This document shows positions 7,948 to 61,757 of a DNA stretch of 64,000 bases, one piece after another. The notes beneath the pieces are model-generated. The model had not been told where the DNA came from, did not search any database, and worked only from the letters and a program-made list of their open reading frames with translations. This stretch comes from Candidatus Gottesmanbacteria bacterium RIFCSPHIGHO2_01_FULL_40_15. GTDB taxonomy: Bacteria; Patescibacteriota; Microgenomatia; 2-02-FULL-39-11. The number at the start of each line of letters is the position of its first letter. Within the stretch, counting starts at the first letter, position 1. The stretch covers positions 76,922 to 140,921 of the forward strand of contig MFJF01000005.1 of NCBI GenBank assembly GCA_001779115.1, in the 5' to 3' direction. The position numbers and the translations under genes were made by a program.

Positions 7948-8217
7948 ATGGCGTTGGATCCTAATAACAAGAAAAAAATAATTACCGAGTATGCTACAAA
8001 AAAAGGTGATACAGGCAGTCCTGAGGTTCAAATCGCCTTATTAACCCACAAAATTGATAAACTTGTCGGACATTTAAAAGGTAATCCGAAAGATAACCAC
8101 TCCAGAAGGGGCTTATTGGGAATGATATCCAAAAGAAGAAGACTGATTAATTATTTATCCAATAAAAATAAAGACAGGTATAAGGAGATTGTCGATAAAC
8201 TGAAATTAAGCAAGTAA
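7948..8217 (+). CDS. rpsO: 30S ribosomal protein S15
   Basis: 89-aa protein with a full-length match to S15 ([14 protein letters not shown]...[16 protein letters not shown]). Confidence 0.95.
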
Positions 8218-8250
8218 AGATTCTTTCAATTCTGTGGAAAAAAGATCCTC

Positions 8251-11564: not shown

Positions 11565-11600
11565 AGACTACCTTGAAAAAAATTAAGTTATAATTAAAGT

Positions 11601-12698
11601 ATGATAACAACTTCTTCTGATTCCCAGAATCAAAACGGTGAATTTTCCGAACTGATAAAACTCAGGCAAAAAATAACGGATAGTCATCTTCCTTCCGATC
11701 TTCGGGATAAAGTAAATACAATGATTGAACGGGCAGAGTTAAGTTTTAAATACCATACCCAATTTTCCCAATTCGATGCCGTTGCCGGTTATATTGATTG
11801 GATTACGGCCTTACCCTGGCAGACTTTCAGTCAGGATAATATGGAAATAGAACAGGCGAAAAAAATTCTGGATAAAAACCATTACGGTCTTAATGAATTG
11901 AAAGACAGAATTTTGGAGTATTTGTCAGTTATGAAATTAAATCTTGATCAGGCTAAAATTGATCCGTCAATTACCGATCATAATATTGCCAGGGCGCCGA
12001 TTTTATTTTTTGTCGGCTTAGTCGGGACAGGTAAAACCACAATTGCCATATCCATAGCCGAAGCATTGGGCAGAAAATTCATCCGCATTCCATTCGGAGG
12101 CATGGGATCAGCACTTGATTTAAGAGGTGAATCGAGAGTCCACCCGGATGCGGAAGTAGGCCATGTTATGAAAGCCTTAAGAAGAGCCGGAACAAAAAAT
12201 CCGGTAATTCTGCTTGATGAATTAGACAGGGTTGCCGAACATGCGCGGGCTGATATTATGGGTGTTTTGATCGAACTACTTGATCCTGAGCAAAATGTCT
12301 CTTTTACCGATCACTATATTGATTATCCGTTTGATTTGTCACATGTACTGTTTATTGCAACAGCCAATAACACCAATAATATTTCAACTGCGGTTATGGA
12401 CCGGTTGGAACCTATTCAAATGCCCTCATACAATGATGATGAAAAAATAATAATCGGTAAAGCTTATGTTTTTCCCAAAGTACTTAAATCGGCAGGTTTA
12501 AACGATAAACTATTAACAATAGACTCCAATGTCTGGCCTTTAATTGTCCGGCCGCTCGGATTTGATTCAGGTATAAGAACACTGGAGAGGACTATTGACG
12601 GAATATGCCGTAAAGTGGCCAGGCAGATAATTGAAAAAAAACATACCCAGGTTTTTATTTCAGCCGACAATGTCAAGCAATACCTGCCAACATGGTAA
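11601..12698 (+). CDS. Lon-like AAA+ ATPase module without LAN or S16 protease domains
   Basis: Collinear with the E. coli Lon region from about residue 300 to 585: YIDWITALPW, HYGLNELKDRILEYLSV, GLVGTGKTT (Walker A), LLDELD (Walker B), LLDPEQNVSFTDHY, and the alpha-helical lid. The ORF ends exactly where the Lon protease domain would begin. The RGHRRTY motif is degenerate (RGESRVH). Confidence 0.75.
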   Translation: MITTSSDSQNQNGEFSELIKLRQKITDSHLPSDLRDKVNTMIERAELSFKYHTQFSQFDAVAGYIDWITALPWQTFSQDNMEIEQAKKILDKNHYGLNELKDRILEYLSVMKLNLDQAKIDPSITDHNIARAPILFFVGLVGTGKTTIAISIAEALGRKFIRIPFGGMGSALDLRGESRVHPDAEVGHVMKALRRAGTKNPVILLDELDRVAEHARADIMGVLIELLDPEQNVSFTDHYIDYPFDLSHVLFIATANNTNNISTAVMDRLEPIQMPSYNDDEKIIIGKAYVFPKVLKSAGLNDKLLTIDSNVWPLIVRPLGFDSGIRTLERTIDGICRKVARQIIEKKHTQVFISADNVKQYLPTW

Positions 12699-12725
12699 AA
12701 TTAATCCCCGGTTTATAAATAAAAA

Positions 12726-14435
12726 ATGATCAACCCGATAAACAGGAATATCTTTGGCAATCCACAATCTATATTGCGGATTATCCCTTTGGGAGGAATA
12801 GGCAATGTGACGAAAAATTTATATGTTTACGAATACAGAAGCCGGCCTGATAACATTTCGGATATCCTAATTGTTGACTGCGGAGTAGGTTTTCCCGATG
12901 AGGCAATGTACGGAATTGATCTGGTTATTCCGGATATAACTTACTTGCGGGATAAAATAAATAAAATCAGGGGAATTATACTTACCCACGGGCATGAAGA
13001 TCATATAGGAGCGCTTCCTTATATTCTGCCGGTACTAAATGTTCCCGTATACGGAACGTTATTAACTGCCAAACTTGCCGAAGTCAAGTTACAGGACTCC
13101 GGTTTGCAAGTAAAGGTTAATGTAATAAACGAAAATATTCCGCTTAAAATAGGGCCGTTTTCGGTTGAATTTATCCATGTTACCCATTCAATTCCGGATG
13201 CTGCCAATCTTTTCATTAAAACTCCTGTTGGTAATTTTTACCACGGCAGTGATTTTAAATTTGACTGGACACCGATTGACGGCAAAAAAACAGAAGTTGA
13301 CAAAATTGCCAGGGCGGGAAAAGAGGGTATAACCTGTTTATTATCCGATTGCGTCAGGGTGGAAACAGAAGGATATACATTGTCTGAAAAAATAATTGAA
13401 GAAACTCTGGATAAGGAAATCAGGAATTGCCCGGGGAAATTTATATTCACTACCCAATCTTCAAATATTTCAAGAATCCAGCAAGCCATTGACGTCTCAA
13501 TCAGAAATAACAGAAAAATAGTCTTTTTAGGCCGGTCAATTGAAAGAAATGTCGGGGTTGCTTACAGATTAAAATATGTAAATTACAGCGAAATGTTTGT
13601 TGTAAGGGACAAAGATATCAGAAAATATAAAGACTCTGAATTAAGCCTCATTGTCACCGGCAGCCAAGCCCAGCCAAATTCGGCGCTTTCCAGAATTGCC
13701 GAAGGAATCCATAAATTCGTGAGAATTAAAGAAGGTGACGTGGTGGTTTTTTCAGCAGATCCGATTCCCGGATATGAAAATGCAGTTCATACTTTGATTG
13801 ATCTTCTGACGGTAAACGGGGCCAGAGTGGCTTATTCGGAGATACAAGACCAGCTTCATGTGTCCGGACACGGTGCGAGAAATGATTTGGCTTTAATGAT
13901 CGGTTTGACTCAGGCGTCAAATCTTTTACCCATAGGCGGAACCTACCGCCAGATGCGGCATTATTCCCAGATGGCCTTTGATATGGGGTATAAACATAAT
14001 CAGGTACTTTTACCGCTTGAAGGAGAAATTATTGAATTTTCAGCTTCCGGACAAGTTAGAATTGCAGAAAAATTAAGCCTGAAGAATGTAATGATCGACG
14101 GTTTGGGTGTCGGGGATATCGGAAATGTTGTTTTACGGGACAGGCAAACAATGGCCAGCGAAGGAATTGTGATTGTGGTTGTACCTTTGGACAAATCATC
14201 AGGAAGAGTAACTGCTGAGCCGGACATAATTTCCCGGGGATTTATCTATATGAAAGAATCTGTAGATTTAATCGATGAAGCAAAAAAAGTGATAATAAAA
14301 TCCTTAAGACTGAAAAAAGGGAGGATTACTGACTGGCAATTTGTCAGAAAACAGGTGGAAAAAAATCTGGAAGGATTCCTGTTTAAGGAAACACACAGAA
14401 GACCTCTTATTCTTGCCGTAGTAGTTCATGTATGA
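12726..14435 (+). CDS. rnj: ribonuclease J (metallo-beta-lactamase/beta-CASP)
   Basis: HGHEDHIGALPYIL motif, a beta-CASP region and a C-terminal domain. The protein is 569 aa. Confidence 0.9.
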   Translation: MINPINRNIFGNPQSILRIIPLGGIGNVTKNLYVYEYRSRPDNISDILIVDCGVGFPDEAMYGIDLVIPDITYLRDKINKIRGIILTHGHEDHIGALPYILPVLNVPVYGTLLTAKLAEVKLQDSGLQVKVNVINENIPLKIGPFSVEFIHVTHSIPDAANLFIKTPVGNFYHGSDFKFDWTPIDGKKTEVDKIARAGKEGITCLLSDCVRVETEGYTLSEKIIEETLDKEIRNCPGKFIFTTQSSNISRIQQAIDVSIRNNRKIVFLGRSIERNVGVAYRLKYVNYSEMFVVRDKDIRKYKDSELSLIVTGSQAQPNSALSRIAEGIHKFVRIKEGDVVVFSADPIPGYENAVHTLIDLLTVNGARVAYSEIQDQLHVSGHGARNDLALMIGLTQASNLLPIGGTYRQMRHYSQMAFDMGYKHNQVLLPLEGEIIEFSASGQVRIAEKLSLKNVMIDGLGVGDIGNVVLRDRQTMASEGIVIVVVPLDKSSGRVTAEPDIISRGFIYMKESVDLIDEAKKVIIKSLRLKKGRITDWQFVRKQVEKNLEGFLFKETHRRPLILAVVVHV

Positions 14436-23095: not shown

Positions 23096-23749
23096 ATGAA
23101 GACAGTCGGAGAAATCTTAAGACGAGCCAGAGACGAAAAGGGGCTGACTTTGGATCATATCGAGGAAAAAATAAAAATCAGGAAAAAATTTCTTCAGGCG
23201 CTTGAAGAGAACGCCTGGAACAAACTTCCTTCACTTCCCTATATTAAAGGTTTTTTAAGAAACTACAGTTCATTTCTTAACCTTAATGCCGATGAAATGC
23301 TGGCAGTTTTCAGGAGGCAATATCTTTTTGAAGAGAAGGATGAGTTGATTCCCGAGAGCATTTCCAATCCTGTCAATAAACCCATCATCAGGCTGTCACC
23401 CCAAAGAATCTTCCTTTTGGTAACGGTCATTTTCCTCTTAATTTTTTTCATTAACCTGGCCCGCCAGTACCGGGCCATTTCCAACCCGCCCATGCTTTCC
23501 GTGAAACAGCCCAATGAGGGTGAAATATTAACATCTCAGGATCTGGAGGTTCGCGGAAAAACCGATCCCGACGCGGTTATTGAGATAAACAACAAAAAAA
23601 TTACAATTAATGACAAGGGTGAATTTTCTGCCACATTCCAGCTTCAGCCTGGAATCAATACAATCATAATCGAATCAGTCAGTAAACACGGGAAAAAAAG
23701 AACAGTCACCAGAACCGTCTCGGTTGAAAATCAAGGCTCGCAATTTTAA
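23096..23749 (+). CDS. RodZ-like protein (HTH_25 domain, TM helix, DUF4115-like C-terminal domain)
   Basis: GEILRRARDEKGLTLDHIEEKIKIRKKFLQALEE...LPYIKGFLRNYSSFLNL is typical of the RodZ N-terminus. A single TM helix and a beta-rich C-terminal domain follow. Confidence 0.65.
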   Translation: MKTVGEILRRARDEKGLTLDHIEEKIKIRKKFLQALEENAWNKLPSLPYIKGFLRNYSSFLNLNADEMLAVFRRQYLFEEKDELIPESISNPVNKPIIRLSPQRIFLLVTVIFLLIFFINLARQYRAISNPPMLSVKQPNEGEILTSQDLEVRGKTDPDAVIEINNKKITINDKGEFSATFQLQPGINTIIIESVSKHGKKRTVTRTVSVENQGSQF

Positions 23750-25194
23750 TGAAGCTGAAGCTTTTTTCCCTCATTCTTTTATATTTTCTGAGCCGGATTC
23801 CCTTTATCCGCAGTTACCCCGTTTATTATGATTCATTTGAATATGAAAGGATTGCCGATAAGATTAACCTTTCTAATTTCAGGCAAACAGCCCTCTTAAG
23901 CCACCAGCCGGTCCATACTTTTTACCTGGCAACAGCCGCTTTTTTCAAATCGTTTTTTCCCTATCTTAATTCCGGACAGGTGCTTTCCTTAATTTCATTT
24001 CTGTCCGGACTATTTACCGTTATCATTTTTTATTTGGCAATAAAAGATATTGACGGTGAAAACAGGGGGTTTTGGGCGGGACTTTTTCTTTTATCGTTTC
24101 CCTATTTTTTGGCAGTTAACAGTAATATTTTATACGAAGGAGAGCTTTTGATGTTTCTGGCTCTGGCCTTATTATTGGGGATTAAGCCCGGGAAAAAAAA
24201 CAATATGTACTTGACAGCGCTTTCCGGTGTCAGCTACGGGTTATCGGTTCTTATTTTTATCGGCAGTCTGTTTTTTCTGCCAATAATTCTTATTGTTAAT
24301 ATTGCCAAAAAGAAGAAACCGGTATTTAATCTTTTTATCTTTCTCCTGGCTTTTTCTTTAACCGCTATTCTGTCAGATTTAATATTGTTTTCCTCAATTA
24401 TTAATCTGGCTGATAAATATCTTTCCCATGCCTCGGATTTTACTTCAGCCCGGGGCGGGATTTTAATTTTTACGGCCAGGATTTTAAGAAATATTTTCCT
24501 TCAAACAAGCCTTAATCTTTCCGCTATCGGAGCGGCTATTTTCTTTGCGGCACTTATTTTTTTTCTTTATAAAAAACGAGTTTACCGGACATATTTTTTA
24601 GTTTTGGGAATACCGCTTATGATTTTGATGCAGTATTGGCATGCCGGTCTTTACGGAAGACTGGCTGTTATTATACTTTTTCCGGCCGCTTATGTTTTAT
24701 CCCAAATCGGCAAAAATTCACTTTCCAAATTATTAATTATTCTTCTAATCCTGACAACAACCGGAAAATACGCCAAAGCTTTTTTAAGCCGCCCGCCCTC
24801 ATACCACTATCTTAAACTTATTAATAATAATCCCGTTTTAAATGGGTCCGCCGTTGTTACATCAGATTACAACCGTTTTATTTATGAAAGATACGGGTCG
24901 CCTGTTTTTATCATCAGGGATACACCCGGAATATATGACCAACTGGATGTTTTTATCAGCAGGCAGCTTCAAAACAACAGAATTGTAGCGGTTGATTCGC
25001 AGGCAGTTTTTTTCCCAAATAGGCAATTTGACGGGGATTTTTACCATCCCTTAACATTTAAAAAAAGGGCAAATGAAAAAATTCAAACAATATTGAAAAA
25101 ATATCCGACAGTCAGTACAGTCAAAGACTCCGGAAATGAAGAGATTTACTTCCTGATTTTAAATCCCGGTGAATCTTTGGCAATTTATCATTGA
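23749..25194 (+). CDS. GT-C family glycosyltransferase (ArnT/PMT-like)
   Basis: More than 10 TM helices. The first-loop motif YYDSFEYERIADKI resembles the DExRYAxIAR signature of ArnT/PMT. Confidence 0.55.
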   Translation: MKLKLFSLILLYFLSRIPFIRSYPVYYDSFEYERIADKINLSNFRQTALLSHQPVHTFYLATAAFFKSFFPYLNSGQVLSLISFLSGLFTVIIFYLAIKDIDGENRGFWAGLFLLSFPYFLAVNSNILYEGELLMFLALALLLGIKPGKKNNMYLTALSGVSYGLSVLIFIGSLFFLPIILIVNIAKKKKPVFNLFIFLLAFSLTAILSDLILFSSIINLADKYLSHASDFTSARGGILIFTARILRNIFLQTSLNLSAIGAAIFFAALIFFLYKKRVYRTYFLVLGIPLMILMQYWHAGLYGRLAVIILFPAAYVLSQIGKNSLSKLLIILLILTTTGKYAKAFLSRPPSYHYLKLINNNPVLNGSAVVTSDYNRFIYERYGSPVFIIRDTPGIYDQLDVFISRQLQNNRIVAVDSQAVFFPNRQFDGDFYHPLTFKKRANEKIQTILKKYPTVSTVKDSGNEEIYFLILNPGESLAIYH

Positions 25195-25243
25195 CATAAA
25201 CTGAAGCTCTGGTTAGAATTAAACAAAGTTAAACAACTGCTCT

Positions 25244-25516
25244 ATGATAGAACCGACCCAGGTACTTCTTTTTTCAGTGGTAACTATTTTGACCGTAATA
25301 CTGGTTCTTATCGGCTGGCAAATTTTCCAGATTCTTTCGGAAATCCGCAAAATGATGATGAAATTCAATACCATGGTTGACGGCGCTGTTTCGGTTACCG
25401 GAAACCTGGGAAAATCATTTGAAAAACTGGGTGGCTTTTCGGAGGGAGTCCAGGCGGTATTTTCCCTATTTAGGTTATTTTCGGTTAAAAAGAGGGAAAA
25501 AAAAGAGGAAGACTGA
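25244..25516 (+). CDS. small membrane protein (hypothetical)
   Basis: 90 aa with one N-terminal TM helix. The stop overlaps the RBS and start of the next gene. Confidence 0.4.
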   Translation: MIEPTQVLLFSVVTILTVILVLIGWQIFQILSEIRKMMMKFNTMVDGAVSVTGNLGKSFEKLGGFSEGVQAVFSLFRLFSVKKREKKEED

Positions 25517-25517
25517 T

Positions 25518-25913
25518 ATGGAAGAAAAGAGCAATAAAGCCGGAAATTTCTGGTTGGGATTTTTCCTCGGCGGAATAGTCGGGGCTTTCGTCATTTTTGT
25601 ATTGGGCACAAAAGAAGGCAAGAAGCTGGCGGAAAAGATACGCGAAAACGGCGAGATATTGGAGGAAGATCTGGAAGAGAAAGTCGCCAAACTTCAAAAA
25701 AAGGGAGAAGATATTGTGAAACAGGCCAAAAAGGTTAAGGAGCAGGTGGTAAAGGAAATTGAAGAGAAAAAAGGAGCTACTTCTGACGCCCTTGTTACAA
25801 AAATGGATGAAGCGTTTACGAAAATTGAGGACCTGCAGAAAAAAGGGACAGCCCTGACGGAAGAGGTTCATCAACGCTACTTCAAAAAAGACGGCAAACC
25901 CCTGAATTCGTAA
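25518..25913 (+). CDS. YtxH-like membrane-anchored coiled-coil protein
   Basis: AGNFWLGFFLGGIVGAFVIFVLG followed by a K/E-rich coiled coil. An AGGAAG RBS lies before the ATG. The ORF-track N-terminal extension (25377) is rejected. Confidence 0.5.
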   Translation: MEEKSNKAGNFWLGFFLGGIVGAFVIFVLGTKEGKKLAEKIRENGEILEEDLEEKVAKLQKKGEDIVKQAKKVKEQVVKEIEEKKGATSDALVTKMDEAFTKIEDLQKKGTALTEEVHQRYFKKDGKPLNS

Positions 25914-25936
25914 AAATTCAAATTCTAAAGCGAAGC

Positions 25937-26647
25937 TTACTGGTTGGCCGGTTCGTTTTGACCGTCAGTTTCCACGTAGGACACGCAATCTCCCTGATTA
26001 TTAAAGACACCAAACTCTTCCCAGCCGTCTTTTTTACACTCTTCCTTATCAGCGGGCATGACCGTCTGGGGCGGAAGAGAAACGATTTCCTCAACGATTA
26101 CATTATCCAACGCCGGGCCGTATGCAGAGTCTACATTACTGGTAAAAGTTAAGACAGTAGTTCCAGCAGTTGCGGTGAATTCAAAATTTCTTGTCTCCCA
26201 ACCCATAGTTTCTTTAGTATTCTTGGTATGATTGGTTGTATCAAAACTAAATGGGGAGATTGGGTCACCACCGACATCCGCAGTCAAAGTTTTAATTCCA
26301 GATCCGCCCTCGGGATTACCGGCCATGTCAAATTTCACAATATAATTCTTTCCGGCTTCTGTGGGAAACGGCTGTCTGATTGAGCCTGCTACCAGTCCGC
26401 TTAAATCGATACTCCGGCTGCCTTCTGATGCCGGCCAATAAGTACCGATTATTTCCACGTTTCCAGAAACAACTTCCCAATTAACAATATCCGTATCCTC
26501 TGTATCAACCTGTAAGTACAGTCCCGGTTCGGTTCCGTATTCGAAACTGCCGTTTTGGACAATTGAAGCTGCCAAAGCAACGGTTGTAACACTAACGAGA
26601 ACCATACCGGCGACCGCACTTGTGAGTATCAGTTTTTTAATTTTCAT
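25937..26647 (-). CDS. secreted DUF642-like protein
   Basis: Signal peptide (AVAGMVLVSVTTVALAAS) then NGSFEYGTEPG...WEVVSGNVEII...SIDLSG, which resembles DUF642. A strong AAAGGAG RBS and an ACTTGACAAA -35 box lie upstream. Confidence 0.6.
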   Translation of the reverse strand: MKIKKLILTSAVAGMVLVSVTTVALAASIVQNGSFEYGTEPGLYLQVDTEDTDIVNWEVVSGNVEIIGTYWPASEGSRSIDLSGLVAGSIRQPFPTEAGKNYIVKFDMAGNPEGGSGIKTLTADVGGDPISPFSFDTTNHTKNTKETMGWETRNFEFTATAGTTVLTFTSNVDSAYGPALDNVIVEEIVSLPPQTVMPADKEECKKDGWEEFGVFNNQGDCVSYVETDGQNEPANQ

Positions 26648-26749
26648 ATATTTCTCCTTTCGTTAAGAGAAAATTATATTTTCCGTCAAGGACTGGATAA
26701 ACATATCAATCCATAAAGCTTTTGTCAAGTTTTGGAGCATAAAAACCGG

Positions 26750-26791
26750 CATTATAAAACAACCCGCAGGTATTATGCCTGCAGGTTGTTT
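26750..26791 (-). terminator. intrinsic terminator for gene 26829..27146
   Basis: AAACAACC(c/t)GCAGG-tattatg-CCTGCAGGTTGTTT stem, followed by TTTTATAAT on the minus strand. Confidence 0.5.
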
Positions 26792-26828
26792 GAAAAAAAG
26801 TTAAACTAATTTGCTTTATTAAACAAAT

Positions 26829-27146
26829 TTAGTTCTGCGGATTTCCGCAAAGATGGCTATTGTTAATGCCGGTCTGCTGACCATCAGCTCCCGGTCCGGG
26901 ATATGAGCCACCGGGATAATGTCCTGATTGTTCATTTCCAAGATTCCAGTCTTTACCGAAATAACCGAATGATCCGTGTCCCTGACATTCTGTATGACTT
27001 GCAGAAACATCGTGACCCGGTTGAGTTCCGTAACCGGAACCGTCACCTTCATTTCCGGCAAAAGCAGGTGCTACTAAACTTCCGTACATTAAAGCACCGG
27101 CTGCTGTTCCGATTAAAAATTTCTTAATATTCATAAAATTTTTCAC
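26829..27146 (-). CDS. small secreted Gly/His-rich protein (hypothetical)
   Basis: 105 aa with a signal peptide (...SLVAPAFA). The mature part is about 75 aa, Gly-rich with two Cys. It has a very strong RBS (AAAGGAGGTG), a TTGACA-N17-TATGGT promoter and its own terminator. Confidence 0.5.
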   Translation of the reverse strand: MKNFMNIKKFLIGTAAGALMYGSLVAPAFAGNEGDGSGYGTQPGHDVSASHTECQGHGSFGYFGKDWNLGNEQSGHYPGGSYPGPGADGQQTGINNSHLCGNPQN

Positions 27147-27397
27147 CTCCTTTCGGGTATTAAAAATCCGCCTCTGCTGCGGACTTGGGTTATTATTCGG
27201 AGTCTTTAATTATATAGATGCGGGTCAATATATTCACGGATTCCTAAACCATACCAGTCAATATTTTTTTTGTCAAGTTATAATCATCCAATTTTAGGGT
27301 TTCTTACTTATTTATTACTATGATGTAAGAAGTCTGCACTAGGTTGATAAAATAACCGTTATATTTTTTTAAAAAGTAATATATACTTACAAAACAT

Positions 27398-28090
27398 ATG
27401 AAAAAGTTGTTGGTAGTTTTTGTTGTTTTAATATTATTGGCGGGAGCGGGAATTATATATTTAGTACAGCCAAAAAATCTGGGTATAAAATATTCTGCCC
27501 AAGACCATCAGGCTTTTAATAATAAAATCAAAGTTTCACATGAAGAACTTCCGGCCGATTCCCCTTCCGGTAAAACCCTGATTGCCTCAGGCAACCATCC
27601 GGTAGACGAAACATTCTCCAGTGAAGAATTATCAGCCGCAGCTGACAACCGCCATAAAGACTATGTTTATTTTCCCTTTCATAAAGTTCAAATCAGGGTA
27701 AACAGTGACGGATCGGTTGAAGGCAGCGCTTCTGTTTCTTTTCAGGATGCGGTGAATTATCTTCTGGCTCTGGGGGTGAATTCCGCCGATATATCGGAGG
27801 GCACTAAAAAATTTAAGATCCCCAATGCCAGCCTTCCCGTTTATCTGAAAGTATCCGGATCGGTTGAAAATAATACGAGCCGAATCAGTGTCCAACAAGC
27901 CAAAATTGCCAATATAGGAGTTCCCCAGAATTTAATTGATGAGTACGGTCCGGGATTAAATGACTTGGTTAACTCTGTTATTTCAGACCGGCAGCCAAGT
28001 TATAATGTTGAAAAACTGGAAGCAGTCGGAGGTAAAGTCCACTTCAAAGGCACATCACCGGACCGCGAGCAGTCAGTCAGAAGCAAGTAA
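27398..28090 (+). CDS. N-terminally membrane-anchored extracytoplasmic protein (hypothetical)
   Basis: 230 aa with an N-terminal TM helix. The last 45 nt are duplicated at 29311-29355. Confidence 0.55.
   Translation: MKKLLVVFVVLILLAGAGIIYLVQPKNLGIKYSAQDHQAFNNKIKVSHEELPADSPSGKTLIASGNHPVDETFSSEELSAAADNRHKDYVYFPFHKVQIRVNSDGSVEGSASVSFQDAVNYLLALGVNSADISEGTKKFKIPNASLPVYLKVSGSVENNTSRISVQQAKIANIGVPQNLIDEYGPGLNDLVNSVISDRQPSYNVEKLEAVGGKVHFKGTSPDREQSVRSK
28046..28090 (+). repeat. 45-bp direct repeat, copy 1 (3' end of gene 27398..28090)
   Basis: aaaggcacatcaccggaccgcgagcagtcagtcagaagcaagtaa matches 29311-29355 at 42 of 45 positions. Confidence 0.8.
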
Positions 28091-28130
28091 AGGGATTAAA
28101 TATTATACGGAGCATGTTAAAATTAAAACA

Positions 28131-28343
28131 ATGGTAGAAACATTTACTCCATTCAGAGCGGGTCCAACAGGAGAAAAAGAAAATGGCGGGCCGGCTGTGC
28201 AACCCCTGGGAACAACTTTTACTGAGATCGATCAACTTGCGGCAGGATTAACTGATGAACAAGCCGAAGGAATGGATCCAAAAGATGTTGAAGCCCTGGC
28301 GGATTTTGAAAGTGAAACCAGCGATAGATTTGTCGGTTGCTGA
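28131..28343 (+). CDS. small acidic protein (hypothetical)
   Basis: 70 aa, starting MVETFTPFRAGPTGEKENGG. It lies inside the repeat-bracketed segment. The ORF-track extension from 27960 overlaps the upstream gene and is rejected. Confidence 0.35.
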   Translation: MVETFTPFRAGPTGEKENGGPAVQPLGTTFTEIDQLAAGLTDEQAEGMDPKDVEALADFESETSDRFVGC

Positions 28344-28441
28344 TTCCAATAATAAATAAAACACAAACTCTTCTCCGACTCTTCTCTGAATTTTTCTTTT
28401 TTTATTTTATACTATAGGACTATTATGCTATAATTCTCCTC

Positions 28442-29275
28442 ATGAAAATTGAGGCTTTAAAGCCGATGGAAGCTGCTACCTTATTGGAATTGCCGGAAAT
28501 AGAATCCGGTTTTAATAAACTGGTTGATGTCCGTAATCATTATTACAGTAATTTCGGGACTGAAAGTTCCGGAGAAAAAACTCTTGAAAGTATTTATCTT
28601 TGGTGGAAAGATTTTGAAAACACAAATGAAACCATGTCCCGTTTCCGCAGCGCAATTACCCGACCCCATATACCGCCCTTGGAACAGCAGCAAGTCAGGG
28701 AAGAATATTCTTCCAGTCAACAGACTGTAAATCAAATAGTCAGAGGTATAGTTTTATTAACTCTGACTGAAAAACCGACTGATGCGGATTGGGATAAAGC
28801 TTTAGAGATTAATACAATTATAGAAAATGTAAAGAGCTGGGAAAAATACGATAATCAGATTATTGCCTTTTGCGAAGCAGTTTTTGAAGCCGGTGAAGAA
28901 TTATCAGCAGTAGGAATCCGGCTAAGAGTCGCCCAGCACTCATGGGATGAATTGACCGCACTTTTCGGATACGCAAAGGCAATACGCGTAACTACCGTTG
29001 ATGATATAGACAGTGAAAAAAGAGAATTATCGGATGCGTTACGCGGTAACTTATGGTCTGAAGATGAATTGGTGATGAAGTCGAAAGTTTATAAAAATTA
29101 CCAAAAACAACTAAAAAGTTTTCCTGAAGATTTACGGAAAAAATTAAAGTTTCTCTGGAAATGTGCTCAGGGAAAAATTCCAAGAGGAACATCTGCCTTT
29201 GATATACTGCATACTCAGGAATCCATTCTCAAAGACCTCTATAAAGAAGGAGCATTTGACCCTGAAGAAAGTTGA
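28442..29275 (+). CDS. hypothetical protein (277 aa, no recognised domain)
   Basis: Long clean ORF inside the repeat-bracketed segment. I recognise no motif. Confidence 0.5.
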   Translation: MKIEALKPMEAATLLELPEIESGFNKLVDVRNHYYSNFGTESSGEKTLESIYLWWKDFENTNETMSRFRSAITRPHIPPLEQQQVREEYSSSQQTVNQIVRGIVLLTLTEKPTDADWDKALEINTIIENVKSWEKYDNQIIAFCEAVFEAGEELSAVGIRLRVAQHSWDELTALFGYAKAIRVTTVDDIDSEKRELSDALRGNLWSEDELVMKSKVYKNYQKQLKSFPEDLRKKLKFLWKCAQGKIPRGTSAFDILHTQESILKDLYKEGAFDPEES

Positions 29276-29310
29276 TATTACATTCCTGAGGAGAGATGCT
29301 TTTTTATTAT

Positions 29311-29355
29311 AAAGGCACAACACCGGACCGCGGGCAGTCAGTCAGAAGCAAGTGA
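29311..29355 (+). repeat. 45-bp direct repeat, copy 2 (orphan 3'-end fragment)
   Basis: aaaggcacaacaccggaccgcgggcagtcagtcagaagcaagtga encodes KGTTPDRGQSVRSK*. The terminator hairpin follows immediately. Confidence 0.8.
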
Positions 29356-29365
29356 TCATAAAATA

Positions 29366-29398
29366 AACAACCCACCGGTATTTCAGCGATGGGTTGTT
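29366..29398 (-). terminator. intrinsic terminator (for gene 29443..29943; possibly ancestral terminator of 27398..28090)
   Basis: AACAACCCACCG-gtatttca-CGATGGGTTGTT stem with a minus-strand T-tract (GTTTATTTTATG). Confidence 0.5.
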
Positions 29399-29442
29399 AT
29401 AAAAATGAGTTGTCAGTAATCTGCACTCATTTTGAATCTACT

Positions 29443-29943
29443 TTATTCAGGCCTGTTTGATCCAACTGCAACAAGTCCGGAACTATTCCAGGGAGCACTC
29501 GAAAGCGTAGTTAATTTTGCTGAATCAGCAACTCCATCACAAACTACTGTGTTTGGATTATCTAAACGAACATTAACACGCGGCTCAGGACCGGGTTTGG
29601 TCGGATCGATATCAGCAACTGAAAAACCGTTAGCATTAAGATGTCCGGTTCCGCCGGCAATTGCCACAAAACATCCAAGTGAATGAACATTACCATCGTA
29701 GAAAATTACTTCATAAGATACACCAGGAACCAAACCTTGAGCATTTACATTAACAACCCAGTTGTCTTTTCCGCTTCTATAATTTAATACTACTTTCCCT
29801 TTTGCACTATCATATTCATCCGCTTCACTTGAATCTTGAGATAATGAACCTTGCCAATTATCAAATTTACCAGCTGCTAACACACCATTTGCTGTCAGAA
29901 GCCATAATACGGCTACTGAAGTACCGATTAATTTTTTCATCAA
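29443..29943 (-). CDS. secreted protein (hypothetical)
   Basis: Signal peptide (AVLWLLTANGVLAAG), 166 aa, two Cys. A strong RBS (AAGGGGGTGA) lies upstream. Confidence 0.55.
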   Translation of the reverse strand: MMKKLIGTSVAVLWLLTANGVLAAGKFDNWQGSLSQDSSEADEYDSAKGKVVLNYRSGKDNWVVNVNAQGLVPGVSYEVIFYDGNVHSLGCFVAIAGGTGHLNANGFSVADIDPTKPGPEPRVNVRLDNPNTVVCDGVADSAKLTTLSSAPWNSSGLVAVGSNRPE

Positions 29944-30133
29944 TTTTCACCCCCTTTTTGGCAGGATATTGGAAGACAGATTTTTGGGCAGAGGAAAATT
30001 AAGCTTTGAGTACCGCAAAGACTATCATAACAACAAAACTCTTGTCAAACAAATTTATATTTCCCAAAAAAACAATCCGCGGGCAATATACCTACGGGTT
30101 GAATATATATAAATTATATATTTTTAAAAGGAT

Positions 30134-30319
30134 ATGCCTGACCAGGCGGGATGTGTGATTAAAGGAAATATGGATAATAACGGGAGAAACCGCATTTATT
30201 ATCTGCCGGGGTGCACACAGTATAAGTTTACCGTGGTTGAAAAGGATAAGGGAGAGGCATGGTTTTGTATGCAGAGGCAGGCGCAGCAGACGGGATTTGT
30301 TAAAGCTAAAACCTGTTAG
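30134..30319 (+). CDS. small ORF with a motif resembling the conserved C-terminal module of thermonuclease-family proteins
   Basis: 61 aa: IKGNMDNNGRNRIYYLPGCTQYKFTVVEKDKGEAWFCMQRQAQQTGF. This follows the KGN-x-NG-x-IYH-x-PG...WFC...AG-x-R pattern. It is convergent with the Fic gene. Confidence 0.3.
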   Translation: MPDQAGCVIKGNMDNNGRNRIYYLPGCTQYKFTVVEKDKGEAWFCMQRQAQQTGFVKAKTC

Positions 30320-30332
30320 AGGTTGAGAAAGA

Positions 30333-31358
30333 TTACTTATAATAGGTTGATCTTCCTTTGCCAAAGCGTTTGATTAAACCCATATTCTGAAGTTTTTTAA
30401 AATCAAGAATTCTGGTTGATTTTCCCCGGTCTGTCAGTTTGGCATATTCCCTATCGGTAATAAAACCATTTTTTTCGATATATTCCAACATCTTTTCATG
30501 ATAGGGCATCAGTTTAGTTTCCGGACTAACTGATATTTCCGGCAGCAGCTTTTTGACCCTTAACAGCTCATCAATAATACCGTCAGTAAAATATTCCAGC
30601 CAGGAGGTAAAATCGATCGAATCACGGGTTTCGTAGTAATTTCCGATTACTCCAACACTTTTGAAGTAGTTGGATACATTACGATTATAATAATTTTCAA
30701 AGCTGAAAAGATTAAAGGTATCAAGACCAAGATCTTTTAACAGAACTTTTGTTGCCAGTCTTGAAGTCCTGCCATTACCGTCCATAAAGGGATGAATAAT
30801 GACAAGCTGTTTATGAAATAAACCGGCTAAAATAAGAGGATCGAAATTGCCTTTTTTTATTTTAATAAACTCAATTAATTGACTCATAAGTATCGGGATA
30901 TCTTTTGCGTCCGGAGGCCAATAAATAGTTTGATTTTTCTTAGGATCATTGACAAAGACCGGTTTTAATCTGAATTTTCCTGATTCATGTATTGGCACTA
31001 ATTTTTCGGTTACCTGCTTTTGAATTGTACAAATTGATTCAACAGTCAGTGAAAAATGTCCTCTCAGGCTTAATTTTTTATTCAAATTTACAAGAGCTTT
31101 ATTGTAATTAATGACTTCCTGTTCGCTTGATCCCAGATTTTGCGGTGTTGATTTAAGAATTTGTTTGACATCAGTCAAAGGAAGCGGATTGCCCTCAATT
31201 GATGTTGAGGCAAAAGTGGAAATTTCGCGGGCAGATTTCTCCATTTTATGGAGTACGATTTTGGAAAACTTTTTCCGGTTGAGCTCATAAACCCGCTTAT
31301 TTATAGACTTTATGTTGGAAAGAAGTTTATGGGAAATCGCGTACTTAGGATTGAACAT
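30333..31358 (-). CDS. Fic-family protein (class II, N-terminal inhibitory motif, C-terminal wHTH)
   Basis: Fic active-site motif IIHPFMDGNGRTSRL. The inhibitory motif STSIEGNPL matches (S/T)xxxE(G/N). The C-terminus has a winged-HTH-like segment. Confidence 0.85.
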   Translation of the reverse strand: MFNPKYAISHKLLSNIKSINKRVYELNRKKFSKIVLHKMEKSAREISTFASTSIEGNPLPLTDVKQILKSTPQNLGSSEQEVINYNKALVNLNKKLSLRGHFSLTVESICTIQKQVTEKLVPIHESGKFRLKPVFVNDPKKNQTIYWPPDAKDIPILMSQLIEFIKIKKGNFDPLILAGLFHKQLVIIHPFMDGNGRTSRLATKVLLKDLGLDTFNLFSFENYYNRNVSNYFKSVGVIGNYYETRDSIDFTSWLEYFTDGIIDELLRVKKLLPEISVSPETKLMPYHEKMLEYIEKNGFITDREYAKLTDRGKSTRILDFKKLQNMGLIKRFGKGRSTYYK

Positions 31359-31400
31359 AATAGTCGAATTATAGTCGATTATTAGTCTATTAACAATTGT

Positions 31401-32339
31401 TTACCGAAAAACGGGCAAGTGGGAAGGATGATATTTGTCATCAAGGAGTGAAACCGAGAAGACTTGCCCGTGCTTTTTGAGGATTTTTTGCTTTTTCAGG
31501 AGGTCTTTTTCAGAAACGGTGTCTGCTTTGGTGAGAAGGATTATTTCTTCTTTTTTGGCCATGTCGGGGTTAAACTGTGTTAATTCTTTTCTGACAACAC
31601 GGTAATCTTTATCCGGATTGTCGGATTCTGCGGATATGCAGTGGAGTAGCAATTTTACTTTTTCAATGTGTTTTAAAAATTTTATTCCCAACCCCCGACC
31701 AGAGGATGCGCCTTCAATGAGTCCGGGGATATCCGCCAGGATAATGCTTCCCATGACGCCGAGATTGGGTTCAAGAGTGGTAAAAGGATAATCGGCGACT
31801 TTGACATTGGAATTGGTCAGTTCATTGAGGAGGCTGCTTTTGCCGGCATTGGGAAGACCGATTAACCCGAGGTCGGCTATTAATTTCAGGACAATTTTGA
31901 TTCTTTTTTCCTGTCCCGGTTTACCCGGCTGGGCAAATTTAGGAGTGGTGTTTGAGGGTGAGGCCAGGGCATTGGTGCCTTTTCCGCCCCTGCCGCCTTT
32001 GGCAATGAGGATTTTTTGTCCGATATCGTTTAATTCGATGGTCTCACCGGTATCCTGATCAATGAGGATTGACCCAAGCGGCAATACAATTGTCAGATCA
32101 TCGCCTTTTTTGCCGGTTTTATTGTATTTACCTCCCGTCTGGCCGTCTTGTGCTTTCCACAACTTTTTTCCCTGAAACCGGTTAAGAAGGGATAAATCAG
32201 AGCTTGTCTCAAGATAAATATTGCCTCCGTCACCCCCGTTGCCTCCGTCAGGGCCGGATTTAAACCCTGGATAAAATGAGGCTTTCCCGTCTCCGCCACG
32301 GCCGGCATGGAATATAACTTGTACTTCATCGACAAACAT
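31401..32339 (-). CDS. obg: GTPase Obg (short form without C-terminal domain)
   Basis: Gly-rich Obg-fold N-domain (GGDGGNGGDGGNIY) followed by a G domain (GLPNAGKSSLLN). Confidence 0.85.
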   Translation of the reverse strand: MFVDEVQVIFHAGRGGDGKASFYPGFKSGPDGGNGGDGGNIYLETSSDLSLLNRFQGKKLWKAQDGQTGGKYNKTGKKGDDLTIVLPLGSILIDQDTGETIELNDIGQKILIAKGGRGGKGTNALASPSNTTPKFAQPGKPGQEKRIKIVLKLIADLGLIGLPNAGKSSLLNELTNSNVKVADYPFTTLEPNLGVMGSIILADIPGLIEGASSGRGLGIKFLKHIEKVKLLLHCISAESDNPDKDYRVVRKELTQFNPDMAKKEEIILLTKADTVSEKDLLKKQKILKKHGQVFSVSLLDDKYHPSHLPVFR

Positions 32340-35453: not shown

Positions 35454-37625
35454 ATGTCATTACTTACCCAGATTTTGCCGAAAAAGGAAGGCACAAATTA
35501 TTTCATTCTTTTAGGTCTTGAGGAGAATATTGTCAGGGCGGCGGTTGGAGAAATTTCTGACAGCAAAGTCAGAATCCTGGGAACCGGTAAAAGCGAATTT
35601 GCCGACGAAAAGAATGAAACGGAGGCGGTTGATATGGCCATATCCATGGCCGAAAAATCCCTGCCTGAAGAAATACTTCCGGAAAATGTCATATTTGCCC
35701 TGCCCCAGTTTTATCTTGAAGGAACAAACGTCAAAGAAGAATATTTGAAAAGACTGAAAAAAATTTCCAAAGAGCTGAATTTGAAAGCGGAAGGCTTTGT
35801 CGATTATGCTTCTGCTATCAGCTATTACCTGGATAATGAAGAGGGCGCGCCGCCAACAGTATTGCTTTTTGACCTGACCAAAAACCACCTGACGATAACC
35901 CTTATCAGAATCGGAAAAATTTCCCAGCATGTTATCGTTGACAGAACAGATTCCATAGTATCTGATTTTTCCGGGGCTTTGCCCGAATTTAAGGCGGAAA
36001 TTCTGCCTTCAAGAATTATTCTTTATGACGGTGCGGAAAAAATTGACGAGATAAAAGAAGAACTTCTCAGATTCCCCTGGCACAAGCATTCCATATTCTT
36101 ACATACCCCCAAAATCGAAATTCTGTCAAATGATAAAATTCTGAAATCCATAATTGAGGCGGCATCGACGACATTTCTGCCTAAACCTGACGCATTAATC
36201 CAAATGAAACAGTCTTATAACCCGGAAGACACCGGTGAAAAAGAAACCGTAACTGAAAATCCGCCGAAAATTGGAGAAACACAAAAAATTGTAGGCGATG
36301 AGAATGACAAAGCGCCAGATACGGATAATGAAAATAAACAGAATTTCGGATTTGTCAGTGAAACACTGGCGGAAAAAGCGGAGAAATTTAAAAGAGAAAC
36401 ATCACCATATTCTGAAAGGTCCGGCAGGAAAAACGGACATGAGGCGCCAATTGATATAGGCGCAATTAGCGGTCAAATCATAACCAAATTTAATAATATC
36501 AAAGGAGTTTTTTACCTGGTACCATTGGTTTTATTAATTTTTGTTGCTTATCTTTTTATATTAAATTATCCCAGGGCGTCCGTTTCCTTAATAACTTACC
36601 CCAGACCGTATGATCAGACATTGGATATCGTATTTTCACAGGAAGCCGGGGCGGGAGACGATTTGCCTCTTATATTAACCAGAACTGTTAAAGGCGAGGC
36701 AGGCGGAGAAAAATCAGCCAAAACTACCGGAAAAAACCAGATCGGAGAAAAAGCCAAAGGTGAAATTTCAATTTACAATAAAACTTTATCCTCAAAACAA
36801 TTGCCTAAAGGAACAATTTTACAAACCGGACCGTTAAAATTTACTTTGGATGGTGATGTAAAAATTGCCTCAGCAACGGAAACCGGAGAAGGAATAAACT
36901 TCGGAAAAGCATCGGCTAAAGTAATTGCGGCAGTTATCGGACCGGAAGGAAATCTGGCGGCTAACAGTAATTTCACGGTGGTTGATTTTTCCGACTCTAC
37001 ACTGACTGCCAAAAACAGCCAGCCATTCTCAGGCGGAACAAGCCGGGAGATTGCCAGCATTTCAAGGGAAGACCGGGATAATCTGGAAGAAAAGTTAATG
37101 ACTGAGCTTGTCAATAAAGCCAAACAGAGTCTGGTAAAAGAATTATCATCAGGAGAAAGACTCCTCGAAACACCAATATCAACTGAGATTTCAGCCAAGA
37201 AATTCAGCGGTGAGGCGGGAAGTGAAGCTGAAAAACTTAATCTGTCCATGACATTAACAGTTGAAGCCCAGGTTTTTAAGCAAAACGAATTGGAAAAACT
37301 GGCAGAGGAAAACAAATTATCGGCAATAGCCGGTTATACTTTGGACAAGGATAAAGTGAGCTTCAGCGTTTTAGAGAGTGTGATTGAAAAAAACGGATCA
37401 ATCAAGGCAAAGGTTAAACTTGTTTCCTATTTTATTCCCGATCTTGACATGGGGAAAATCAAAAAAGACCTCAAAGGAAAAACCTATGACGGAGCCGTTT
37501 CATATCTGGAGAAAATCGAAAACATTGCCGGAGTTAAAATATCGGTAATAAGGAAACTGCCTCTTTTTAATAAACGCCTCCCGTATTTGCCGGATAATAT
37601 CAGTGTATCACTGGTATCCAGATAA
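35454..37625 (+). CDS. bitopic membrane protein: N-terminal FtsA/PilM-like (degenerate actin-fold) cytoplasmic region, TM helix, large extracytoplasmic domain
   Basis: The N-terminus YFILLGLEENIVRAAVGEISDSKVRILGTGKS resembles the first phosphate-binding strand of FtsA/PilM but lacks DxGT. A TM helix lies at about residue 345. The 3' end overlaps the sortase ORF. Confidence 0.45.
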   Translation: MSLLTQILPKKEGTNYFILLGLEENIVRAAVGEISDSKVRILGTGKSEFADEKNETEAVDMAISMAEKSLPEEILPENVIFALPQFYLEGTNVKEEYLKRLKKISKELNLKAEGFVDYASAISYYLDNEEGAPPTVLLFDLTKNHLTITLIRIGKISQHVIVDRTDSIVSDFSGALPEFKAEILPSRIILYDGAEKIDEIKEELLRFPWHKHSIFLHTPKIEILSNDKILKSIIEAASTTFLPKPDALIQMKQSYNPEDTGEKETVTENPPKIGETQKIVGDENDKAPDTDNENKQNFGFVSETLAEKAEKFKRETSPYSERSGRKNGHEAPIDIGAISGQIITKFNNIKGVFYLVPLVLLIFVAYLFILNYPRASVSLITYPRPYDQTLDIVFSQEAGAGDDLPLILTRTVKGEAGGEKSAKTTGKNQIGEKAKGEISIYNKTLSSKQLPKGTILQTGPLKFTLDGDVKIASATETGEGINFGKASAKVIAAVIGPEGNLAANSNFTVVDFSDSTLTAKNSQPFSGGTSREIASISREDRDNLEEKLMTELVNKAKQSLVKELSSGERLLETPISTEISAKKFSGEAGSEAEKLNLSMTLTVEAQVFKQNELEKLAEENKLSAIAGYTLDKDKVSFSVLESVIEKNGSIKAKVKLVSYFIPDLDMGKIKKDLKGKTYDGAVSYLEKIENIAGVKISVIRKLPLFNKRLPYLPDNISVSLVSR

Positions 37626-37632
37626 GGGAAAA

Positions 37633-38337
37633 ATGGCAATTTATTCCTACACCAAAACAAAAGCGCCGATATCAAAAAAACTTCTATCGGTAATATCAGT
37701 CGTTCTCATACTGACAGGACTGACTCTTTTAACTGCCGTCATCTACCCGATCGTTGCTTTTGAAATTTATTATTCTTCAAAATATGCCAATTTAATCAAG
37801 CCGATTCCTGATGACAATAAATCATTAACCGGAAATTTATCGGAGGTGCTGGGTACGGCCTTTACCGATTACACAAAAGCAAGCATCTGGTTTCCCAAGG
37901 CCAGCCGGGTTAATCTTGTCAGGAATTCTTCCCAATATCTGTTGTCGATTCCCAAATTAAAAGTAAATAAGGCAAATGTTATTGTCGGATCAGATGACCT
38001 GTCAAAATCGCTGATACACTTTACCGGACCGCTACCGGGAAGCCGCGGAAATCCGGTCATATTCGGGCATTCAACCATACTTCTTTTTTACAACCCTTCA
38101 GACTATAAAGCGATTTTTTCCAAACTTCCTGATCTTGAACTGGGAGATGAGATATTTATTGAACTGGATAATGTCACCTATACTTTCAGAGTTTATGATA
38201 TGTTTATAACATCACCTTCGGATCTGTCGGTGCTGGAGCAAAATACCGACGATGAAGAAATTACTTTGATAACTTGTGTTCCTCCGGGAACATATCTTAA
38301 GCGGTTTATAGTTAAAGCGAGACTGGAAAAAATATAA
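37633..38337 (+). CDS. sortase family transpeptidase
   Basis: N-terminal TM helix, catalytic His (IFGHS), TLITC (TLxTC Cys) and a conserved Arg (VKARL). The start is placed at the ATG with an AAGGGA RBS; the track start at 37603 is rejected. Confidence 0.8.
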   Translation: MAIYSYTKTKAPISKKLLSVISVVLILTGLTLLTAVIYPIVAFEIYYSSKYANLIKPIPDDNKSLTGNLSEVLGTAFTDYTKASIWFPKASRVNLVRNSSQYLLSIPKLKVNKANVIVGSDDLSKSLIHFTGPLPGSRGNPVIFGHSTILLFYNPSDYKAIFSKLPDLELGDEIFIELDNVTYTFRVYDMFITSPSDLSVLEQNTDDEEITLITCVPPGTYLKRFIVKARLEKI

Positions 38338-55841: not shown

Positions 55842-55866
55842 GTTATTATATAAATTCAATTGTACC

Positions 55867-58077: not shown

Positions 58078-58107
58078 CTCTTATATAATACCATTTAAAA
58101 AATTACC

Positions 58108-59121: not shown

Positions 59122-59124
59122 GGA

Positions 59125-61714: not shown

Positions 61715-61757
61715 AACTTTATTACTATAAACAAAAAACTAAAAACTGACAACTTCA

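Follow-up and report, generated by a model that had tools for sequence, protein, structure and literature searches.

An uncultivated groundwater population of Candidatus Gottesmanbacteria (Microgenomates, candidate phyla radiation, CPR) from the Rifle aquifer is the source of the 64-kb stretch of DNA analysed here (the window), and its segment at 25.9-31.4 kb is probably a flexible region, variable between strains and species, that acts as a strongly expressed, fast-turnover exoproteome or cell-surface locus. At its core are single-gene units in which a sigma-70-type promoter and a leader of 50-110 nucleotides (nt) precede a full Shine-Dalgarno (SD) sequence, then an open reading frame (ORF) that begins with a signal peptide and, last, an intrinsic terminator. 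These units encode a DUF642/choice-of-anchor C protein and two small proteins, s101 and s165, all predicted to be exported, and the gene of the membrane-anchored p230 lies among them. The junctions running from terminator through promoter and leader to SD form a small homologous family that persists from species to species while different ORFs follow it, and within the population the DUF642 domain would be swapped as a cassette, the signal peptide on one side of it and the C-terminal module on the other being invariant. The content of the segment would change via homologous recombination in the conserved flanks, and selection would most likely act on the exposed proteins, through recognition by phages or predators or through attachment to partners or substrates. 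Three unrelated events are superimposed on this arrangement: the insertion of a 1.22-kb p70/p277 segment in the 3′ end of p230, with a duplication of 43 nt; the substitution of other sequence for the first (5′) two-thirds of a thermonuclease gene, of which a sunset-domain remnant of 61 amino acids (aa) is left; and the insertion of a class II, SoFic-like Fic gene beside obg. What was observed directly is the anatomy of the segment, the families to which its proteins belong, the missing synteny, the structure of the alleles, and the homology of the modules; from these the exported proteins are assigned a putative role at the surface or in the exoproteome.

Related loci and strain alleles

For the comparison with relatives, species-representative genomes supplied the loci around obg homologues and metagenomes those around p230 homologues; the window proteins were mapped on them. 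The closest species found (locus L012) has an Obg protein 76% identical to that of the window. There, the first gene after obg, at a distance of 130 nt, encodes a membrane-anchored thermonuclease of full length (221 aa) that has a sunset domain at its C-terminus, and beyond it lie unrelated genes and a type III restriction-modification system (8121-13259 of that locus, near obg); DUF642, s101, p230, p277, s165, and Fic are all absent from the L012 obg locus. In a second relative, L094, the genes after YtxH are those of amino-acid metabolism, a nuclease, and a toxin-antitoxin pair, followed by a p230 homologue (65% identical) and other secreted proteins. The gene 3′ of p230 differs in all four genomes in which it was compared: the p70/p277 insertion and s165 stand there in the window, a purine-nucleoside phosphorylase gene in L010, a FecR-like gene in L094, and a gene for a membrane protein in L095. 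Neither DUF642 nor s101, s165, p277, or Fic was found at the equivalent regions of four relatives (L010, L012, L094, and L095). A preliminary description, made from the letters of the stretch 25195-31400, had called it an accessory-looking island, and for 25937-31358 an accessory character is supported by the presence and absence of genes in the relatives, because no universal syntenic conservation was found.

The same cannot be said of the whole stretch. Its first two genes, encoding the 90-aa membrane protein tm90 (25244-25516, plus strand) and a YtxH-like membrane protein of 131 aa (25518-25913, plus strand; PF12732, 38.0 bits against a cut-off of 37.5), are 80% and 63% identical in L094 and stand there in the same order (g19830-FtsK-RodZ-tm90-YtxH), so that the first 0.7 kb (25244-25913) belongs to the core and is not accessory. 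The tm90 promoter, TTGACA-17-TAGAAT, lies at 25191-25219 on the plus strand. A gene for a PMT_2-type glycosyltransferase (23749-25194), located between RodZ and tm90, is missing in the otherwise syntenic L094 and is thus itself a variable gene.

The strain comparison concerns mainly the DUF642 gene (25937-26647, minus strand), which encodes an exported protein of 236 aa. Its family, already named in the preliminary description, is confirmed by PF04862 (80.7 bits against a cut-off of 27; 1.3e-22) and by the choice-of-anchor C model TIGR04362 (148.3 bits against 120). The N-terminus, MKIKKLILTSAVAGMVLVSVTTVALA before an Ala, was read as a signal peptide; behind it come a beta-sandwich core that is hypervariable (about 26000-26545) and, at the C-terminus, an invariant module with two Cys (25937-26035). 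The protein resembles known DUF642/choice-of-anchor C proteins in passing both curated cut-offs and in having the domain after the signal peptide, but differs from them in its C-terminal part, which is neither a PEP-CTERM nor an LPXTG anchor; no match was found among PDB sequences. Within the species, all of the stretch is 98-100% identical between assemblies, save the body of this gene, in which nucleotide identity falls to 64-81%. The flanks of the gene are 100% identical between strains, and two public assemblies break at its body. In a protein alignment at least three alleles can be told apart, one of which combines the other two types as a mosaic, and no variation among strains is seen in the signal peptide or the final 42 residues. 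By the Nei-Gojobori method, the synonymous divergence (dS) of the core is 1.32 and the nonsynonymous (dN) 0.33, with their ratio, omega, at 0.25, whereas dS in the signal peptide and the C-terminal module is 0.00-0.04; between core genes of the window and L094, dS is about 2 or more. The difference between 1.32 in the core and 0.00-0.04 on either side of it argues for old alleles that recombination has brought into a background clonal in other respects, the breakpoints coinciding with the borders of the domain. Recent hypermutation was rejected as the source of this variation, the alleles being old at a dS of 1.3, and so was a diversity-generating retroelement: there is no reverse transcriptase among the proteins of the stretch and no template repeat, and the alleles differ by indels and over about 550 nt, at the same dS.

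The two-Cys module itself (CKKDGWEEFGVFNNQGDCVSYV; CKKDGW..F.NQGDCVSYV; about 30 aa) matches no family model. It also ends an otherwise unrelated secreted protein of 292 aa in L010 (2748-2846; E 7e-9), and it stands alone in a membrane-anchored protein of 68 aa in another locus (L100, 3617-3823), beside cupredoxin, HMA, and DsbD_2 genes. When the module alone was used as a 41-aa query, a single match was obtained, the query being too short for the word index.

Expression signals and regulatory modules

Each small gene of the stretch had been credited with a strong promoter, an unusually strong SD, and a private terminator. The first two attributes hold for DUF642, s101, and s165. The promoters of DUF642 (26728-26700) and s101 (27276-27248) are of a near-consensus TTGACA type, as is that of s165 (30048-30021; -35 box 30048-30043, -10 box 30026-30021); all three lie on the minus strand and agree with the consensus at 10 of 12 positions. 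The two attributes do not hold for p230, which has neither a consensus promoter nor an SD, or for p277, which lacks an SD, and the promoters of the housekeeping genes ftsK and alaS in the same window (FtsK and AlaRS) reach 10 of 12 positions equally. Full SD sites precede s101 (27140-27153) and s165 (29944-29957), and the DUF642 SD is AAAGGAG at about 26654-26660. The 14-mer AAAGGAGGTGAAAA, with at most one mismatch, has its sole matches in 64 kb before s101 and s165, a count reached by none of 100 shuffles; for s165 the SD count admits one mismatch (AAGGGGGTGA). The statement that most genes here have no SD proved right, as an SD core of at least 6 nt was found, with a simple gene call, in about 5 of 64 window genes (DUF642, s101, s165, DHFR, and DnaK), and in 1.4 Mb of related loci an SD of at least 7 nt precedes 49 of 1548 genes (about 3%). 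Other SD-led genes of these related loci include those for DnaK, Hsp20-like proteins, and stress-related membrane proteins, which fits the SD marking a high translational demand, and the exported-protein genes of the segment may well be highly expressed.

The position of the SD also sets the start of s101 at ATG 27134 (101 aa) and that of s165 at 29940 (165 aa), in agreement with public gene calls. The listed GTG start of s101 falls within the SD, and the Gly/His-rich peptide described earlier as 105 aa long is present with a true length of 101 aa. As for terminators, DUF642 has none of its own and is convergent with YtxH, from which it is separated by 23 nt; s101 has one (26756-26790); and s165 shares the bidirectional intrinsic terminator at 29363-29397, with the stem AACAACCC...GGGTTGTT, with the convergent p230/p277 unit. 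The shared terminator is 89% identical to L010 1130-1164, and seven of the nine window matches to terminators with the AACAACCC stem lie within 26758-30083. A different kind of start, common to many genes, is seen at 32339(-), 33264(+), 39655(+), 50850(-)/50880(+), 58077(-), 28442(+), and 31358(-), where a TATAAT-like -10 box lies 6-10 nt before the ATG and no SD is present; this spacing suggests that leaderless mRNAs are widespread in the genome. The start at 28442 is that of p277, whose promoter (28406-28434, plus strand) has a -10 box ending 7 nt before the ATG and whose mRNA is probably leaderless.

Homology of the regulatory modules was found both within the window and between species. 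Module copy A (29929-30115, minus strand), before s165, consists of a relic terminator (30066-30101), the promoter, a leader of about 70-80 nt, and the SD, and copy B (26645-26804, minus strand), before DUF642, consists of the s101 terminator, the DUF642 promoter, and its SD. The s165 module (187 nt) is 80% identical to L010 1709-1895 and 60% identical to L094 10998-11184, and these two are 67% identical to each other. The ORF behind the module is s165 here, a secreted ORF of 176 aa in L010, and a secreted ORF of 86 aa in L094. The 176-aa ORF is unrelated to s165 (BLASTP E 0.23); for the 86-aa ORF, tblastn at 1e-5 returned no match to s165, and the comparison was otherwise by sequence inspection only. 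An nhmmer profile of the three modules matches 26665-26798, 5′ of DUF642, with an E of 1e-7, and also matches an L010 junction between two secreted genes and several terminators.

The region before s101, with the promoter and a leader of about 110 nt (27135-27276, minus strand), contains a hairpin (27166-27184) and a U-run (27161-27165) just 5′ of the SD. This leader is orthologous to that of an unrelated 202-aa ORF in L010, only the signal peptides of the two proteins being alignable, and in each case a terminator-like hairpin with a U-run stands between promoter and SD. In L097, a more distant relative that has an s165 homologue, two unrelated secreted ORFs are preceded by promoter and leader sequences 98% identical to each other, with the same kind of hairpin. 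The terminator-like leader hairpins were located at 27161-27184 of the window, about 2560-2590 of L010, about 280-305 and 1650-1676 of L097, and about 12200 of L094. Of 16 signal-peptide genes led by an SD, 5 have such a hairpin, compared with 30 of 1436 other genes (2%; p 2e-5), the five hairpin leaders representing about three independent families from loci that were not randomly sampled. The hairpins may be attenuators; an Rfam scan of 24800-31800, with E up to 5, returned chance-level matches only, with nothing above or near the gathering score. A broader idea, which is tentative and rather doubtful, is that Gottesmanbacteria and related Microgenomates keep exoproteome genes as arrays of interchangeable expression cassettes, in which the modules would be both a regulatory device and homology arms for swapping unrelated ORFs between lineages, and the leader hairpin could be an uncharacterised attenuator. 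The conserved modules before swapped ORFs and the leader hairpins are the sole possibly new parts of the locus, and the evidence base for them is thin.

Among the products, a secreted protein announced at 29443 stands as described: s165 (29443-29940, minus strand) is a predicted exported protein of 165 aa, with MKKLIGTSVAVLWLLTANGVLA before an Ala read as a signal peptide and the C-terminus GSNRPE. All seven members of its family end in (G/V)S(N/E)RPE and have two invariant Cys, and this C-terminal peptide may be a processing or sorting signal. Export of DUF642, s101, and s165 would be by the Sec route, and no LPXTG signal was found in the exported proteins of the stretch. The second secreted protein, announced at 27398, does not fit that label. 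This is p230 (27398-28090, plus strand; 230 aa), the N-terminal membrane anchor of which looks uncleaved; it is 65-78% identical in L094, L095, and L010, with an omega of 0.10, indicating purifying selection, and it has no Pfam, NCBIfam, or PDB match. Searches of PHROGs and PADLOC gave no match for p230, p70, p277, or s165. A surface locus is plausible, because of the signal peptides and the choice-of-anchor C domain; an effector or episymbiosis-related role, the other suggestions of the preliminary description, would be purely hypothetical. Outside the segment, a membrane protein of 723 aa with a faint Baseplate_J match is encoded at 35454-38337 of the window and overlaps the start of a sortase gene.

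Superimposed events and alternative explanations

The short ORF sunset61 (30134-30319, plus strand; 61 aa) matches the sunset-domain model NF051437 (31.8 bits against a cut-off of 27) and aligns to residues 163-221 of the 221-aa nuclease of L012, with stop codons upstream, and no SNase domain was found anywhere in the window. It is evidently the C-terminal remnant of a thermonuclease gene, left after the s165 module replaced the 5′ part. The Fic protein of the preliminary description is likewise real. Its gene (30333-31358, minus strand; 341 aa) sits between this remnant and obg (31401-32339, minus strand), the next gene, where L012 has 130 nt only. The protein matches Pfam Fic (2.8e-17), the PADLOC SoFic model (1.2e-42, residues 9-340), and FICD in the PDB (1e-17). 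The catalytic motif HxFx(D/E)GNGRxxR is present as IIHPFMDGNGRTSRL (HPFMDGNGRTSR; HPFMDGNGR), aligned to the FICD motif; the inhibitory motif (S/T)xxxE(G/N) is present as STSIEGN at residues 50-56, aligned to TVAIEGN of FICD and consistent with class II; and the C-terminal region is of the winged-helix/helix-turn-helix type. Three tandem 11-nt repeats, ATAGTCGATT (31360-31392), overlap the promoter region TTGTTA-17-TATAAT (31360-31396, minus strand), and may be an operator for Fic's own C-terminal helix-turn-helix region.

The presence of this gene raises an alternative explanation, namely a defence hot spot beside obg, in which Fic would be a SoFic-like abortive-infection AMPylase, the nuclease remnant and the restriction-modification system of L012 would mark the island, and the secreted genes would be bystanders. 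SoFic proteins were described as abortive-infection AMPylases and as an anti-phage toxin (PMC12249575). The full-length PADLOC match, the intact Fic core HPFxDGNGRxxR and N-terminal inhibitory motif, and the type III system at the equivalent place in L012 agree with such a role; the C-terminal helix-turn-helix is a further feature shared with class II Fic proteins of the SoFic/FICD type. However, the NCBIfam SoFic equivalog NF046030 gives 57.7 bits against a cut-off of 550, and so the protein is not a SoFic orthologue; nor is a small downstream antitoxin-like gene, as in PMC12249575, evident. Among about nine genes a single one is defence-like, no other protein has a PADLOC match, and the L012 nuclease, membrane-anchored and of the secreted SNase type, does not belong to the known defence genes. 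Since the expression modules and the DUF642 allele structure would also stay unexplained, we consider a defence hot spot unlikely.

The repeat-flanked insertion, correctly recognised in the preliminary description, bears on a second alternative. A segment of 1.22 kb with p70 and p277 (28089-29310, plus strand) is bounded by direct repeats of 43 nt, identical at 41 of 43 positions (95%), which duplicate the last 14 codons and the stop of p230; each copy ends with a stop codon in the p230 frame. Copy 1 (28046-28088, plus strand) is the functional 3′ end of p230 and encodes KGTSPDREQSVRSK, as in relatives, and copy 2 (29311-29353, plus strand) is an orphan 3′ end with two nonsynonymous changes, with the terminator directly after it. 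The insertion is present in at least nine independent assemblies of the species and is not found at the p230 site in L010, L094, or L095. An insertion-free p230 allele was sought in 12 same-species contigs, all of which carry the insertion or end before it. Contigs of GCA_001779255.1, GCA_001779275.1, and seven more assemblies have p277 with identical neighbours, at 96-100% identity to the window.

The acidic 70-aa ORF p70 (28131-28343, plus strand), of doubtful coding status, has no homologue outside the species. Within it, 28197-28225 holds nine strain differences in 30 nt, which divide the strains into two groups within otherwise identical 400 nt, and one public assembly has Ns exactly at these positions. 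The product of p277 (28442-29275, plus strand) is a predicted cytoplasmic all-alpha protein of an uncharacterised family of 280-310 aa, for which a word-indexed search gave 3 clusters and an exhaustive HMMER search 57 representative clusters; the family profile matches nothing in Pfam or the PDB. Homologues in L010 and L011 show DNA similarity only from about 38 nt 5′ of the start codon to the stop and stand in unrelated contexts without repeats, and the neighbourhoods of five homologues share nothing consistent. Short ORFs with only the FtsK-gamma winged helix were observed in L012 (14749-15063) and in L101 (2231-2458), the latter directly 5′ of a p277-family gene. No cognate recombinase was found in the 1.22-kb segment or beside the p277 homologues. 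The insertion could have arisen by a site-specific event of an absent recombinase, by integration of a circular fragment with the 43 nt through a single crossover, or by an illegitimate duplication.

This pair of repeats, together with gene content absent from related species and a Fic gene of a kind often carried on mobile DNA, would be expected if the segment were a classical horizontally acquired island, one foreign block brought by a mobile element between housekeeping operons. The composition does not agree with it: GC is 0.36-0.43 across the stretch, the same as in the rest of the window, and the tetranucleotide distance in 5-kb windows over the stretch is ordinary (z from -1.4 to +1.0), both typical of the genome. 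The 64 kb contain no tRNA, and no integrase, transposase, or recombinase family match was obtained among the ten proteins of the stretch (Pfam, NCBIfam, and PHROG). The repeats, moreover, bound 1.22 kb only. As p230 and the regulatory modules are common to relatives in which the neighbours differ, turnover appears to be piecemeal; on this comparison the segment is a flexible region assembled, as a mosaic, from pieces that each have their own history, and is not one mobile island. A single island of foreign composition is thus very improbable and largely refuted. Elsewhere in the window, at 55000-63000, z rises up to 3.3 and GC is lower; this part encodes UvrD/PcrA-like and AddB-like helicase-nucleases, two FemAB-family proteins, and a NIF3 protein.

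A bacteriocin or antimicrobial-peptide locus was also considered, in which s101, perhaps with s165, would be a toxin and p230 the immunity factor. The gene s101 (26829-27134, minus strand) encodes a small, exported, Gly/His-rich peptide with two Cys, has strong expression signals, is lineage-restricted, and is adjoined by the divergently transcribed gene of a membrane protein, p230, which would fit such a locus. Against this, no bacteriocin, immunity, or dedicated-transporter family was matched in Pfam or NCBIfam, p230 is kept in relatives that have no s101, and the s101 signal peptide (MNIKKFLIGTAAGALMYGSLVAPAFA before a Gly; VAPAFA followed by GNEG) is an ordinary Sec peptide, not a double-glycine leader. 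The peptide is 99-100% conserved among strains, and it has no Pfam, NCBIfam, PHROG, or PADLOC match. We regard this alternative as still less credible than the island. The view that the locus is a conserved housekeeping envelope operon, unusual-looking only through its strong signals, has next to no probability: tm90, YtxH, and p230 are conserved under purifying selection, but the view is refuted for 25937-31358 because four relatives lack DUF642, s101, s165, p277, and Fic at the corresponding places, and the genes are monocistronic and lie on both strands.

The reading as a flexible exoproteome or surface locus has to be weighed against several points. Synteny around obg is generally poor in the clade, which makes the non-conservation less specific to this stretch, and the cross-species set is small (L010, L012, L094, L095, and L097), consisting mostly of short metagenome contigs whose relationship is uncertain. 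Omega values of 0.25-0.44 give no direct sign of positive selection, and a strong signal does not by itself prove that a gene is highly expressed. The signal peptides were called by eye and with a crude hydrophobicity rule, and the enrichment of signal-peptide-like N-termini among SD-led genes of the related loci (19 of 49, 39%, compared with at most 24.5% of others; odds ratio 1.9, p 0.03) is weak and comes from loci that were not independently sampled. The structural models of p277 and s165 are of only moderate confidence (predicted local distance difference test, pLDDT, 70-71). That of p277 (pLDDT 71), made before the deeper alignment, is all-alpha with generic bundle matches only. That of s165 is a putative beta-sandwich like that of Cu/Zn superoxide dismutase, and s165 differs from proteins of this fold, including the superoxide dismutase-like B. 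subtilis YojM, in having no Pfam Sod_Cu match and in lacking the Cu/Zn ligand set of six His and one Asp, its family having one invariant His (H100) in an alignment of seven sequences.

Known systems

CPR bacteria are thought to be attached to or dependent on other cells, and the exposed proteins that mediate attachment are hardly known. The locus offers candidates for such proteins: a DUF642 domain of carbohydrate-binding type, of which one aquifer population retains several old alleles, two families of small exported proteins, and the two-Cys C-terminal module. The full SD, barely used elsewhere in the genome, provides a simple sequence rule for finding a probably abundant exoproteome, and the modules before swapped ORFs lead to a testable hypothesis for gene turnover in very small genomes that have no obvious mobile elements. 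A search of the literature on secreted proteins of Gottesmanbacteria, genomic islands of CPR bacteria, and bacterial DUF642 proteins returned nothing specific. Taken as a whole, the locus would be a moderately interesting example of a known phenomenon, a variable surface-protein or defence region, in a little-studied CPR lineage, and it does not overturn current views.

Of the systems with which the p70/p277 insertion can be compared, the cis-mobilizable element (CIME) is a remnant of an integrative element, flanked by attL and attR and without its own recombinase. The insertion resembles CIMEs in being bounded by imperfect repeats of 43 nt that duplicate the 3′ end of the target and keep the target gene intact, but it is 1.22 kb only, has no recombinase, and its homologues are not repeat-flanked; integration of a circularised fragment through a single crossover, or an illegitimate duplication, is an equally good explanation. 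The exported-protein units can be compared with Vlp/Vsp-type loci of mycoplasmas, variable surface-protein families with conserved 5′ expression regions. In both, a conserved promoter, leader, and signal-peptide start precede differing coding regions, the genes are arranged in arrays, and the products are exported, or predicted to be so. The ORFs behind the conserved 5′ regions are non-homologous here, in contrast to the mycoplasma families, and signs of phase variation (homopolymer tracts or invertible elements) were not found.

The flexible (replacement or additive) genomic islands of free-living bacteria, a concept that comes from the population genomics of marine bacteria, encode exposed surface structures and vary between co-existing strains. 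The segment described here shares with them a fixed chromosomal position, a normal composition, products that are predicted to be exposed, and a defence gene nearby, as well as divergent alleles (dS 1.3) within near-identical flanks in one population and different gene sets in sister species. It differs from them in the size of what is exchanged, as single domains or single small genes would be replaced here and not multi-gene glycosylation clusters, and in that the exchanged units are bounded by homologous modules, in a host that is a CPR bacterium with a small genome.

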